This document shows, one piece after another, positions 5,847-51,558 of a stretch of 64,000 nucleotides of DNA. The notes beneath the pieces are model-generated. The model did not search any database. It was not told the DNA's origin and saw only the letters and a list, made by a program, of their open reading frames with translations. Position numbers and translations under genes: made by a program. The stretch is from Candidatus Poribacteria bacterium (GTDB taxonomy: Bacteria; Poribacteria; WGA-4E; JAJDTR01), in assembly GCA_965220415.1 (NCBI GenBank), contig OZ244829.1, forward strand, positions 2,283,337-2,347,336. The letters run 5' to 3'. Each line of letters begins with the position of its first letter. Within the stretch, counting starts at the first letter, position 1.

Positions 5847-5917
5847 ATTAACCGATCGGATGGATTAAATGATCGAATTGCGAATGCGATAGAGATTCGG
5901 GTGCGATAGGAAATCCC
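5847..5917 (+). mobile_element. Two nested, degenerate 36-nt hairpin elements
   Basis: attaa-cc-ga-tc-ggatg[attaa-at-ga-tc-gaatt-gc-ga-at-gcgatagagattc]...gcgataggaaatccc. Confidence 0.6.
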
Positions 5918-26191: not shown

Positions 26192-26392
26192 ATGGAGCAT
26201 GCGAACATGACCGTTGAAGAACTACGCGAACTCATCGATCAAGGGGAAGATTCGATGACGCAACTGAAGCGTCAGTTCAATGGCGTTGATGCCGTGGCAT
26301 CGGAAATCGCCGCCATGGCGAAGCCCTGTGCGGTTAGAAAGAGATTTCTACCGCGCGAAGATCTCTATCGCACTCGCTATTCACTCGCTTGA
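26192..26392 (+). pseudogene. Truncated Schlafen/AlbA_2-domain gene fragment
   Basis: ELIDQGEDSMTQLKR...ASEIAAMA, then runs into REP/hairpin sequence that supplies the stop codon. Confidence 0.6.
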
Positions 26393-35817: not shown

Positions 35818-36047
35818 TATGCTCCGCGCTGTCAGAAATAGCGTCTTCTGTAGGATCAAGCACGCGAATAGCACGCGCGATAGAGATCCCCGCGATAGTA
35901 GACCCCGTGCGATAGAGATTCCGCGATCTCCAGGTCGCGAACCCTTGTACGACGGAACTCCGATTCCCGACATGCTGGTGCTACGTAAGTCCTATTAGAA
36001 ACAATTATCACTGAAAAAAAGCGTAATAATACCCAACGCAAAGTATA
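35818..36047 (+). mobile_element. MITE family A, copy 3, with one 36-nt element plus two extra 3' tails (35855-35922)
   Basis: Same body as 24130; gtagg[atcaagcacgcg...gatccc cgcgatagtagacccc gtgcgatagagattcc]gcgatctcc; lies between yceD and rpmF. Confidence 0.88.
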
Positions 36048-39907: not shown

Positions 39908-40022
39908 ATCAAGCGAACGATCAAGCGACTGAATAAGGAGCGCGATAGATGTCCCATAGAGATCCCTGAGCGTAATGTAGGAGCGATCAAGCGACTGATT
40001 AAGGAGTGCGATAGTAAATCCC
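39908..40022 (+). mobile_element. Cluster of 36-nt hairpin elements (nested pair 39908-39966; single copy 39986-40022 in a GTAGGAGCG REP)
   Basis: gtaggagcg[atcaagcgactgattaaggagtgcgatagtaaatccc]tctccaggtcgcga. Confidence 0.85.
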
Positions 40023-42665: not shown

Positions 42666-43310
42666 CTCTCGCTTAGATCAATGCCAAAACTGTGTTCAGT
42701 TTAACAAACAACGTCATGTATGACAACAGAATAGAGATTCCATAGCGACTGCGATAAAGATCTCGCTTTATTCCCAATCCTCAGCGCAAATAAACCCCGA
42801 TTCGCAGGTTGGGTTGAGCGGAATTCCATAAGAAATCTTACACAGAAGGCGTGCTTTCGAGGTTTCATTTTGCCCAAATAGCGCCGAAATTCAAGTGAAA
42901 CCCAACACTTTATCGCAAACAATCGACAACTACCCTGCATGTAGACAATTCATATCGGATAATTCCACGCTATTGAGATAATGAATATGAAAACTCAAAA
43001 TAGCCTATTACCACATCAGTTGGCCCACAATTGTGCTATCATCATTAAGTAACGACAGAATAATGACATCTACGCATTGATATCAATGTGATACAAACGG
43101 TAAGAGATGCTAAACCGTCAACTCTGCGGCGACACCCGTTCTTTCCCGCAGGTTCATCACCCATCTCAAAATAGTCTATACTTTCGGACCGGTGAACGCG
43201 CGTTGGGAATTGCATTTACATTCGTCGAGATTCTAGTCTATAATATCACTACAAAAACCGCGACATCTGAGTTCCACCGTACGCCCAAGGCTATTTCAAC
43301 TTGTGGAACA

Positions 43311-43578: not shown

Positions 43579-43750
43579 GTAACTGTTTAGTGCATCGTTT
43601 GGTTCGTAGTATTACAATTCGGTGCACGTCCGGTCTGGGCATGTAAGCCCCCGATTAGTCGGAATTAGCATTGTACTCTCCTACTCGGCGCGTTCCCTGC
43701 CCCCGCTCGGTCTGGATTGGCAAATCCAGACCGATGGACTAAACAGTTAC
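43579..43750 (+). mobile_element. MITE family B (TIR GTAACTGTTTAGT) with 8-bp TSD GAATCGAT
   Basis: gaatcgat-gtaactgtttagt...actaaacagttac-gaatcgat; second copy at 60765-60934. Confidence 0.85.
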
Positions 43751-43778
43751 GAATCGATTATATATTTTACAGGAGATT

Positions 43779-44159
43779 GTGCCAGTGGAATACGAATTTC
43801 ATCACGTACACCTTCGTTGCGAAGATCTGGATGCGGCTGTCAACTTTTATGAGAACGTGCTAAACGGCAAGGTTACCGAACATGTGGCGCTTGGCGGCAT
43901 GCCAATTGTTCGCATGGAGGTCGGCGGTCAGAGACTTTTTCTTTCCCCAAAGTTTGGCGACATTGATGTCGAAGCCACTAGCGGAAAAGCGCGTTGGGGC
44001 GTTTACCAACTTGCGTTTCTCGTGGAGGACATTGATACCGCAGTCGAGGAACTGAAAGCGAGAGGAGCGCAAGCTCAAAATATCAAACCGTCCGGAAATC
44101 CGATTGCTTTTTTTACCGGTCCCGACAATGTACAAATCGAACTGATGCAGCGCTCCTAG
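43779..44159 (+). CDS. VOC/glyoxalase family protein
   Basis: FHHVHLR, AFLVEDID, FTGPDNVQIEL. Confidence 0.88.
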   Translation: MPVEYEFHHVHLRCEDLDAAVNFYENVLNGKVTEHVALGGMPIVRMEVGGQRLFLSPKFGDIDVEATSGKARWGVYQLAFLVEDIDTAVEELKARGAQAQNIKPSGNPIAFFTGPDNVQIELMQRS

Positions 44160-44203
44160 CTTGCACGGAGGAAATTCTCCATCTAGATGCTTCGCTCCAG
44201 AGG

Positions 44204-44380
44204 ATCAAGCGAGTGAATAGCGAGCGCGATAGAAATCCCTCAAGCGAGTGAATAGCGAGCGCGATAGAGATCCCTCAAGTGACTGGATAAGGAACGATCA
44301 ACTGAGTGGATAACGAAGAATCAAAGGAGCGGATAGCGACTGCGATAGCTAATCCCATAGTAGATCCCGATAGAGATCCT
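44204..44380 (+). mobile_element. Array of five 36-nt hairpin elements (three tandem, two more nested in the third)
   Basis: Five (a)tcaa heads and five atag..atcc tails inside a cgctccagagg..caatg host repeat. Confidence 0.88.
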
Positions 44381-44510
44381 CAATGTCAATAGACATGTGA
44401 TACCTCCAATTTTCGCGCTCCGGCGGAGCGCAATGCAACTTGTTTATTAGCCAAATGCACCGCTCAATCCGCGAAGAAACGACGAATATCAACACACCGT
44501 ACGGTTCCAC

Positions 44511-45191
44511 ATGAAATTCAGTGAACTCTTCTACACCATTCAGGGCGAAGGAAAATTCGTCGGCGTGCCATCTGTGTTTTTCAGGACAAGCTATTGCAAC
44601 CTGAGGTGTATTTGGTGCGACACCGCTTATACGAGTTGGACGCCGGAGAACAAAGACATATCTGTCGATGCAGCGGTTAAAGCAATTACGCGGTATGGGT
44701 GCAGGCACATTGTCATCACGGGCGGGGAACCGTTTATCCAGGTCAAGGAACTCACTCAACTGAGTCAAGAGTTGAATCAACGGGGGCATCACATCACCGT
44801 GGAGACAAATGCAACGGTCTTCGCGCCTATTGCCGCCGACCTAATCTCAATGAGCCCGAAACTTCGAAACTCCAACCCCGCTCCAGACAATCGGTTCTTT
44901 AAGCGTCATGAACGTGGGCGTATCTGTACCGATGTTATACGCAAATTCCTCCATCAGTATGAGTGCCAAGCCAAGTTTGTTGTCGATTCTCCCGAAGACC
45001 TTGAGGAAATCAAGGCCTTGAAAGTCGAAATCCCCATTCCGGCGGAGACAATCGTACTCATGCCCCAAGGTATAACCCCGGAAGAATTACAGCCCAAGCA
45101 GGAATGGCTCGTAGAGATATGTAAAGCGGAAGGATACCGCTATTCACCTCGGATGCACGTGGATATCTGGGGAAACAAGCGTGGCGTGTAA
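44511..45191 (+). CDS. queE: 7-carboxy-7-deazaguanine synthase (radical SAM)
   Basis: FYTIQGEG, CNLRCIWCDT, ITGGEP, ETN. Confidence 0.9.
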   Translation: MKFSELFYTIQGEGKFVGVPSVFFRTSYCNLRCIWCDTAYTSWTPENKDISVDAAVKAITRYGCRHIVITGGEPFIQVKELTQLSQELNQRGHHITVETNATVFAPIAADLISMSPKLRNSNPAPDNRFFKRHERGRICTDVIRKFLHQYECQAKFVVDSPEDLEEIKALKVEIPIPAETIVLMPQGITPEELQPKQEWLVEICKAEGYRYSPRMHVDIWGNKRGV

Positions 45192-51295: not shown

Positions 51296-51558
51296 GAGCC
51301 TGTTTGAAAAGTACAATTTGTAGGGTGCGATCAACCGACTGATTAAGGAGGGCGATAGAGATCCACTGCGCACCAGCCTCTAAAAGCCCCAGAGGGATCA
51401 AGCGAGTGGATAACGAGCGCGATAGTAGATCCCTCAACCGAGCGGATAGCGAAGGCGATAGAAATCCAACAGGTAGGTAGTAGACGACAATAAAAGCATG
51501 AAAAAGCTTCCTACAAATAACCAAAAATGGCTTTGCTACCGATTTTTCAAGCAGGCCC
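51296..51558. mobile_element. MITE family C (TIR GAGCCTGTTTGAAAA, TAA TSD) carrying three 36-nt elements (51330, 51397, 51434)
   Basis: taa-gagcctgtttgaaaa...ttttcaagcaggccc-taa. Confidence 0.75.

Follow-up and report, generated by a model that had tools for sequence, protein, structure and literature searches.

Among described repeats, the closest to the one presented here are the small dispersed repeats SDR4-6 of Nostoc punctiforme and its relatives, which, like it, are very small, gene-less and mobile, insert precisely at short sites and enter other repeats. They are reportedly 21-27 nt long and are said to nest in their own copies and to share a hairpin architecture, and we know of no element of this class for which the enzyme has been found. 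The accessible text of one source places the insertion of SDR5 after the third base of HIP1, GCG^ATCGC (PMC4390886), and that of another gives SDRs as reported only in Nostocaceae (PMC5861425). REP and REPIN repeats, with their RAYT genes (TnpA_REP, Y1), resemble the unit in being intergenic hairpins of ~35 nt that occur in hundreds to thousands of clustered copies with covarying stems. Elements of the IS200/IS605 family have a strand-specific hairpin and insert 3' of a short fixed motif, in fixed orientation to the target and without target duplication, and the GC clusters and double-hairpin elements of fungal mitochondria are very small hairpin modules, one inserting into another, that come and go from strain to strain. 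Finally, the Ssn-related motifs (NTS/SRM) of the Ssn GIY-YIG single-strand nucleases are described, in the accessible text of PMC11893778, as oriented repeats of 20-50 nt, each a hairpin with flanks that are not palindromic, which have multiplied in symbionts and are recognised in single-stranded form.

The locus studied here lies in the window, by which we mean the whole 64-kb stretch of DNA that was analysed from a sponge symbiont, Candidatus Poribacteria, in a genome of 6.15 Mb and 50% G+C. Read from the window sequence, positions 44204-44380 hold five copies of one short unit, all in the same orientation and in the order E1, E2, E3 head, E4 head, E5, E4 tail, E3 tail (Table 1), a layout that had been proposed in an initial annotation and is borne out to the base. 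The array is real, polar and built by repeated insertion, not by slippage, and we give a probability of about 0.7 to the reading that a very small mobile DNA element without genes piled up there by inserting again and again.

Table 1. The array, its host spacer and the adjoining genes, in window coordinates.
Feature	Position	Strand	Details
Upstream gene, glyoxalase/VOC-family protein	43779..44159	+	ORF; Pfam PF00903, E 1.2e-13; outside element
Host REP-like hairpin, left half (cttcgctccagagga)	44190..44204	+	ends in GA; array starts after GA
E1, complete unit, 5'-most	44205-44239	+	core TCAA..AAATCC 44205-44238, A at 44204, C at 44239
E2, complete unit, tandem with E1	44240-44274	+	core 44240-44273, C at 44274
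E3 head	44275-44296	+	TCAA, intact hairpin and G22
Junction A between E3 head and E4 head	44297
E4 head	44298-44319	+	inserted after G22 of E3; 44298-44318, then A at 44319 in place of consensus G
Junction A between E4 head and E5	44320
E5, complete 35-nt unit, innermost	44321-44355	+
E4 tail (CATAGTAGATCC)	44356-44367	+	CATAG junction type, as in 87 first-round nests
E3 tail (CGATAGAGATCC)	44368-44379	+
Second host-type hairpin, uninvaded (gcgctcc-ggcg-gagcgc)	44415..44431	+	resembles empty-site family TCCAGCGG^AGTGCAATGT
Downstream gene, radical-SAM protein, presumably 'QueE-like'	44511..45191	+	ORF; Pfam PF04055, E 1e-12; outside element

The four stem pairs are formed in each of E1-E5, and the stem letters differ among E3, E4 and E5, as the initial annotation had said in arguing against slippage. 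E5, being innermost, is the youngest of the nest. E1 and E2 differ by a single base (97% identity) and have all stem letters in common; such full sharing is seen in only 6 of 48 tandem pairs (2.1% expected), so this pair may reflect local duplication or re-insertion next door. Three entry sites were used in the array, namely the host GA, G22 of E3 and position 22 of E4, with a right junction of the CGATAG kind between E3 and E4 and of the CATAG kind between E4 and E5. Directly upstream of the glyoxalase gene, at window positions 43600-43755, lies a different, MITE-like repeat of ~150 nt, which has dozens of copies at 85-95% identity in this genome and in all nine congeners and for which no match was found among plasmids.

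The unit is 35-36 nt long and consists of (G)A, TCAA, a 17-nt mini-hairpin, GCGATAG and a lineage-specific tail, that is, a 34- or 35-nt core with one or two junction bases. Its consensus is (G)A-TCAA-n1n2-GA-n3n4-G-RAT-A-n4'n3'-GA-n2'n1'-GCGATAG-(A|TA)RATCC-(C/T), where the tail is AGATCC in the window's genus and TCTTCT in genus g4. A consensus scan allowing up to three mismatches at fixed positions found 1,519 copies in the window's genome, of which 1,335 are intergenic in a genome that is ~79% covered by ORFs; a loose regular expression gave 1,183 matches there, compared with 21 in a Markov-2 simulated genome. Within the window the tail motif has 27 matches where 12.6 are expected, a number reached in 0 of 100 shuffles. 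The left border is fixed, with A before TCAA in 778 of 809 34-nt copies and G before that A in 713 of them, and TCAA forms the hairpin's 5' foot in every copy. An Rfam scan of the 64-kb window gave no match to the unit at the gathering score and found only two tRNAs.

The hairpin is recognised by covariation. In a set of 1,122 copies, mutual information peaks at four column pairs (9-17, 6-20, 5-21 and 10-16), exactly those of the stem, and these are Watson-Crick or G.T in 95-97% of copies, over 187 stem haplotypes. Three further pairs are near-invariant: G7.A19 (1,041/1,122), A8.G18 (1,063/1,122) and, at the loop, G11.A15 (1,092/1,122). The resulting architecture has two Watson-Crick pairs, tandem G.A/A.G, two more pairs and a loop closed by G.A. 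Sheared tandem G.A pairs occur in a Py-G-A-Pu context, and the bias of n2 towards pyrimidine and n3 towards purine is consistent with it. Wobble pairs make up 21% at the outer pair and 24% at the innermost pair, compared with 1.5-1.6% beside the G.A pairs. Since G.T pairs outnumber A.C mismatches tenfold (545 G.T and T.G against 54 A.C and C.A), one strand folds, the TCAA..GATCC strand. The same pairing is found in an independent set of 73 units (48 distinct) from other Poribacteria MAGs, taken at single-match loci only from 95 stretches among the matches listed, where 96.9% of cells are paired compared with 68.0% in shuffles (0/500); double changes occur in all four pairs, and slid controls give 21-62%. 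Nearest-neighbour DNA folding is weak, at -1.6 and -2.6 kcal/mol, and because its z-scores lie above zero (+0.8 and +0.3) we reject thermodynamic support, so that it is covariation that argues for the hairpin. The stem would be kept paired by a need for hairpin competence while its letters drift.

Self-insertion was analysed by peeling, in which complete units were excised one at a time and an event was counted when the flanks rejoined into another unit. In the window's genome 374 self-insertions were recovered, up to four deep (293, 65, 14 and 2 in successive rounds). Entry lies after G22, between hairpin and tail, in at least 173 events, directly 5' of a unit, giving a tandem, in 66, after A19 in 41, at positions 15-21 in ~34 and in the loop in ~20. 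Because G22 is outside the hairpin, a nest leaves every hairpin intact, and it reads as stacked hairpins followed by tails stacked in reverse order, which is the pattern at 44275-44379. The left junction is constant and the 3' junction wobbles by about one base, the host tail after G22 resuming as CATAG (102 cases), TGATAG (57) or CGATAG (14). Split hosts form 3.61 of the 4 pairs compared with 3.87 in their inserts, which fits what is expected of older, disabled units. An identical stem in host and insert was seen in 0 of 303 nests, with 6 expected by chance; the 303 nests comprise 223 distinct host-insert combinations, the commonest recurring 11 times, and because combinations recur, some composites have also been copied as units.

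Elsewhere in the window, the further nests that the initial annotation had listed are present at 26341 (minus strand) and 39908, the one at 5847 being too degenerate for a clean parse, and its tandem pair at 51397 is confirmed, with stems that differ. Its orphan tails are two tails without heads at 35890-35922 and, at 42731-42763, remnants. The headless tails at 35890-35922 follow a complete unit inside a GTAG REP, and such stacks may result, by our inference, from deletion between the direct repeats of successive heads in a former nest. In some nests (window 39908-39965; locus L010 of the congener G006) all that remains of the host is positions 1-11 and a tail starting at CATAG, without loop or 3' arm; either the insertion replaced host positions 12-24 or a later deletion removed them. 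Stem type is also tied to landing site, with mutual information between stem letters and left flank of 0.10 bit against a null maximum of 0.015. Most CT-stem units follow ..GAG(C/T)GA, which is position 22 of other units, most GC-stem units lie in REPs, and most CC-stem units follow GTGCGA, an association in which target choice and amplification of composites are not distinguished.

The polarity noted in the initial annotation extends to the whole genome. Neighbouring complete units within 60 nt share their orientation in 262 cases and are opposed in 10. In the 48 tandem pairs, mismatches to the consensus average 0.29 for the 5' unit and 0.92 for the 3' unit; 21 pairs have the better match in the 5' unit, 4 have it in the 3' unit and 23 are tied (Wilcoxon p = 3e-4). 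Addition on the 5' side, which had been suggested from the single array, thus agrees with the tandem pairs at large: since the host GA remains at the 5' end after each entry, fresher 5' units fit arrays that grow on that side.

Comparison across related species, likewise proposed in the initial annotation, finds the same spacer filled to different degrees. The genes flanking it are 84-94% identical in nine same-genus genomes and the spacer itself differs; across 10 genomes of the genus, unit counts in the orthologous spacer are 0, 1, 3 or 5. In G001 a single uninterrupted unit stands at the same place, 34/34 identical to the joined E3 head and tail, in flanks that match at 169/198 positions (85%). 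G003 has the host hairpin without a unit, in the empty form cgctcc-tctg-gagcg, at the place of the array, while G007, G009 and G004 have a spacer without a unit and G008 has lost the whole spacer by deletion. A second version of the spacer is empty in G002 (GGGTGGG^CACTGCCCACC) and holds one unit in G005 and three in G006, and the difference between G002 and G005 is exactly a 34-nt insert between G and C. The repeated insertion claimed for this locus therefore stands, from E3 alone in G001 and from the 0, 1 and 3 units of the second spacer version; the single site claimed with it does not, three sites having been used. Because E3 is alone and unbroken in G001, it appears to have preceded E4 and E5, with E1 and E2 apparently added on its 5' side. 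As 34/34 identity is found where the flanks match at 169/198, the identity of E3 across species could instead be due to parallel insertion of a common variant; the E3 hairpin module has 7 copies in the window's genome. The spacer of G004 (locus L005), 741 nt between the same two genes, is of unrelated sequence.

Empty sites are also found within the window's genome. For 382 of the 1,519 units, the 18-mer recreated on removal of the unit occurs exactly elsewhere in the genome, and the commonest clean excision takes TCAA..ATCC with one base and leaves a host ending in GA. The site TCCAGAGGA^GTGCAATGT, of the host family of the array's left hairpin, is empty 81 times and filled 34 times, by 9 different inserts; TCTGTAGGA^GCGATCTCC is empty 82 times and filled 31 times, by 12 different inserts; and TAGGAGCGA^TCTCCAGGT is empty 179 times and filled 18 times, by 5 different inserts. 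The main hosts are GTAG-type REP hairpins, which are seen around the Y1 genes of this genome. Over 40 distinct non-self empty sites the target logo reads S at -1, G (31/40), the point of entry and A (27/40). Insertion thus takes place after S-G(A), in a single orientation, with a net gain of 34-36 nt and sometimes the loss of one or two target bases. No target duplication was found at the filled/empty pairs, and a GATC target-site duplication was rejected, the empty sites being without GATC.

The distribution of the unit in the phylum was surveyed with a strict 28-nt pattern in 176 Poribacteria genomes. There are 347-872 matches in each of the 10 genomes of the window's genus (g1) and 125-145 in each of the four genomes of g4, a genus of another family; beyond these, one g6 genome has 14 matches, one g9 genome 5 and four others 1-2, with no match to the strict pattern in 156 of the 176. 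A reversed-pattern control gave zero in every genome. Two Poribacteria genera are full of the unit family, which is missing or nearly so from the other 162 of 176 genomes; some of these have REP-type hairpins and Y1 genes. The g4 unit keeps GATCAA, the hairpin and GCGATAG and ends in TCTTCT, nests after positions 22 and 17 and sits in GTAG REPs. From this tail variant it follows that the conserved core is 28 nt and that the 3' GATC is not essential. Among IMG/VR viral contigs there were 0 matches, while at least 95 matching stretches lie in assembled-genome contigs, and all 80 titles among the matches listed are of MAGs of Candidatus Poribacteria.

Two observations concern the edges of this distribution. 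The few units of G057, G146, G125, G010 and G050 sit on few contigs each, for instance 11 of the 19 matches of G057 on contig C72, and these unit-bearing contigs may be mis-binned from a g1-type genome. The g4 genome G012 (loci L022-L031) has fewer stem types than the window's genome, CTGAGCGAATAGCGAAGG being dominant, and its low stem diversity could indicate a more recent invasion.

How the unit relates to the known systems can now be considered, beginning with SDRs. The presence of both filled and empty sites and insertion within repeats are SDR traits that the unit shares. At 35-36 nt it is longer than the 21-27 nt reported for SDRs, and its tandem G.A hairpin is not known to us from SDRs, which were compared by description. 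SDR5 is cut after a G in HIP1 according to the accessible text of PMC4390886, as the unit enters after a G, but the target there is HIP1, whereas the unit enters S-G(A) in REP hairpins and in itself; likewise, the accessible literature places SDRs in Nostocaceae cyanobacteria and the unit is found in Poribacteria. We therefore reject membership of the SDRs, as described, on size, phylum, target and structure, and regard the unit family as of the same kind as the Nostoc repeats, by that description, in a new phylum and with a new structure. A cyanobacterial origin, which the GCGAT motifs had first suggested, was rejected because the matching records bear Poribacteria titles.

The remaining systems differ from the unit in their defining features. 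The Y1 genes that accompany REPs are present in the window's genome, but the GTAG-type tetranucleotide at the 5' foot of REPs belongs to the hosts here, the foot of the unit being TCAA; units stand head-to-tail (262:10) and not as the inverted doublets of REPINs; and a RAYT gene is flanked by, and co-distributed with, its repeat, whereas Y1 genes are flanked by the unit only through their own REPs. The unit lands inside REPs, which are its prey. It resembles the IS200/IS605 family in inserting 3' of a short motif without target duplication, but miniature derivatives of that family have subterminal hairpins at both ends and a full-length IS parent, and the unit has one hairpin and no long element was found for it. 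Classical MITEs carry terminal inverted repeats and make a target-site duplication; the unit, with ATCAA at one end and GATCC at the other, does neither. Fungal GC clusters are organellar, GC-rich palindromes without the tandem G.A motif. As for Ssn motifs, the SRM search string HGTCWY..RNCYNB in the accessible text of PMC11893778 does not describe the unit, that text reports no nesting whereas the unit nests, and the small GIY-YIG ssnA gene flanked by such motifs there has no counterpart in the window's genome, which is without a small GIY-YIG gene. By defining features the unit is not a REP/REPIN, a MITE, an IS200/IS605 derivative or an Ssn motif. A literature search, short of most subscription journals, found no description of such repeats in Poribacteria.

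Under the reading we prefer, that of a gene-less mobile element, E3 arrived first, E4 entered E3 and E5 entered E4, and E2 and E1 were added 5' of E3. Entry at the 5' GA yields tandem arrays growing at the 5' end, and entry after G22 yields nests, with a hairpin stack followed by a reversed tail stack. The unit would move as a single strand, its hairpin being recognised by an enzyme acting in trans. Because one strand folds, the 5' border and the orientation to the target are fixed, no duplication is made and hairpins are the landing sites, that enzyme would recognise a folded single strand and cut after a G beside hairpins. Our best guess, a tentative one, is a hairpin-binding single-strand DNA nuclease or transposase of HUH/Y1 type (RAYT-like).

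The window's genome has nine Y1 loci, and no Y1 subfamily common to g1 and g4 yet missing from element-free genera was found. A Y1/RAYT partner was rejected for want of a specific link: close homologues occur in g6 and g3 genomes without the unit, and one Y1 with a 72% match in G021 has no match in unit-bearing G012. Units are in excess near Y1 genes because they sit inside those genes' own REPs. Y1 transposases should give exact junctions, and the 3' junction of the unit is less exact than Y1 and IS200/IS605 enzymes make. IS608 has a lagging-strand preference, and the unit differs from it, its orientation being unrelated to local GC skew (odds ratio 0.88, p = 0.32), although the skew of this MAG is noisy. 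Orientation follows local gene direction instead (odds ratio 1.83, p = 1e-6), with 562 co-oriented units between co-directional genes against 380, a modest correlation that may stem from how accessible the non-template strand is, from the way host REPs point or from an effect at the RNA level.

Other candidates for the enzyme were tried and set aside. An Ssn-type GIY-YIG partner found no support, small GIY-YIG genes being absent from the window's genome and GIY-YIG counts failing to separate the unit-bearing genera. Searches for a long autonomous copy with the unit's ends found none, heads with a tail 1.6-1.8 kb away proving to be inverted units with ordinary genes. In G012, the genes flanked by units in 10 regions, from 100 of 215 unit positions among the matches listed, encode an oxidoreductase, a protease, a TPP enzyme and ORFs of no known function, and were rejected as their homologues in the window's genome are not flanked. 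Separately, two IS200-like Y1 genes (161 aa, 96% identical) lie 3 kb apart in the same orientation at G000:C1:1635177-1638703 in the window's genome, bracketing an ATPase-like ORF of ~444 aa and an ORF of 192 aa, and each lies among gccccagaggggc-type hairpins.

The first alternative dispenses with a dedicated enzyme and has polymerase template switching (copy-choice) at stalled hairpins, through 1-2 nt of microhomology (G or GA on the left, C on the right). The enzyme searches that came back empty agree with it, as do the targets, which are hairpins (REPs or the unit itself), the lack of target duplication, the one-base variation of the 3' junction and the occasional loss of one or two target bases. 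We nevertheless think it unlikely, in view of the fixed left border (A 778/809, G 713/809) and strict orientation (262:10), of a 28-nt core whose position-specific pairing rule is kept in two genera of different families, and of the absence or near-absence of the family from 162 of 176 genomes even though some of them have REP-type hairpins and Y1 genes.

A second alternative, quite improbable in our estimation, sees the unit as a host-selected RNA or protein-binding module, for example a stabiliser of transcript ends, spread by gene conversion among REP clusters, with arrays arising from selection for copies. Units enter host sequences with nothing beyond S-G-A in common, which gene conversion cannot explain, split hosts and orphan tails are allowed to decay, congeners have 0-5 units at one locus and in G008 no spacer at all, and apart from the two tRNAs no Rfam match occurs in the window. 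Such a module would account for the co-orientation with local genes (odds ratio 1.83; 562 against 380), but that bias is weak; it would also account for G.T (G.U) being tolerated on the sense strand only and for an E3 that is identical between species whose flanks are 85% identical.

The last alternative would have the array produced by misassembly or by simple slippage of a single unit. In Logan contigs from three studies, one of whose runs may be the window's own source sample, 44277/44280-44362 (E3 head, E4 head, E5 and E4 tail) is present with 0, 0 and 1 differences, which answers the artefact concern that the initial annotation had raised. The short-read contigs end inside E1/E2, so that population variation in unit number is not readable from them, and the listed joints, with short sides of 19-24 letters, may derive from other copies. 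Those breaks and the near-identity of E1 and E2 notwithstanding, this alternative is scarcely credible, with stems that differ among E3, E4 and E5, a nested stretch recovered from three studies and the same architecture present 374 times in the genome and again in other genomes.

Returning to the mobile element, a bolder form of that reading, speculative and in our view rather unlikely, takes the unit for a near-minimal transposon whose 28-nt core comprises TCAA, the tandem-G.A hairpin and GCGATAG and which travels as single-stranded DNA, carried by a kind of enzyme new to mobile DNA that cuts after G beside hairpins, with stem variants helping to choose the target. If so, the arrays would be a natural ordered log of insertions. 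A 35-nt inserter that is hairpin-guided, single-stranded and orientation-specific would be of interest to builders of DNA recorders.

What is new here is the species-by-species history of an array, the pairing rule with its tandem G.A core and the map of entry points, together with the 5' growth test, the two-genus distribution with a tail variant and the negative results on candidate enzymes. A search for the enzyme can start from the conserved tandem-G.A hairpin, from the fixed entry points and from growth at the 5' end. The unit is among the smallest mobile DNA known, and with it near-minimal mobile DNA, known from the Nostoc SDRs, is extended to a second phylum, at ~1,500 copies per genome and with ten congeners that provide filled and empty sites. 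In preying on REPs, it forms a layered parasitism among non-coding repeats, which explains much of the variability of spacers between Poribacteria species.
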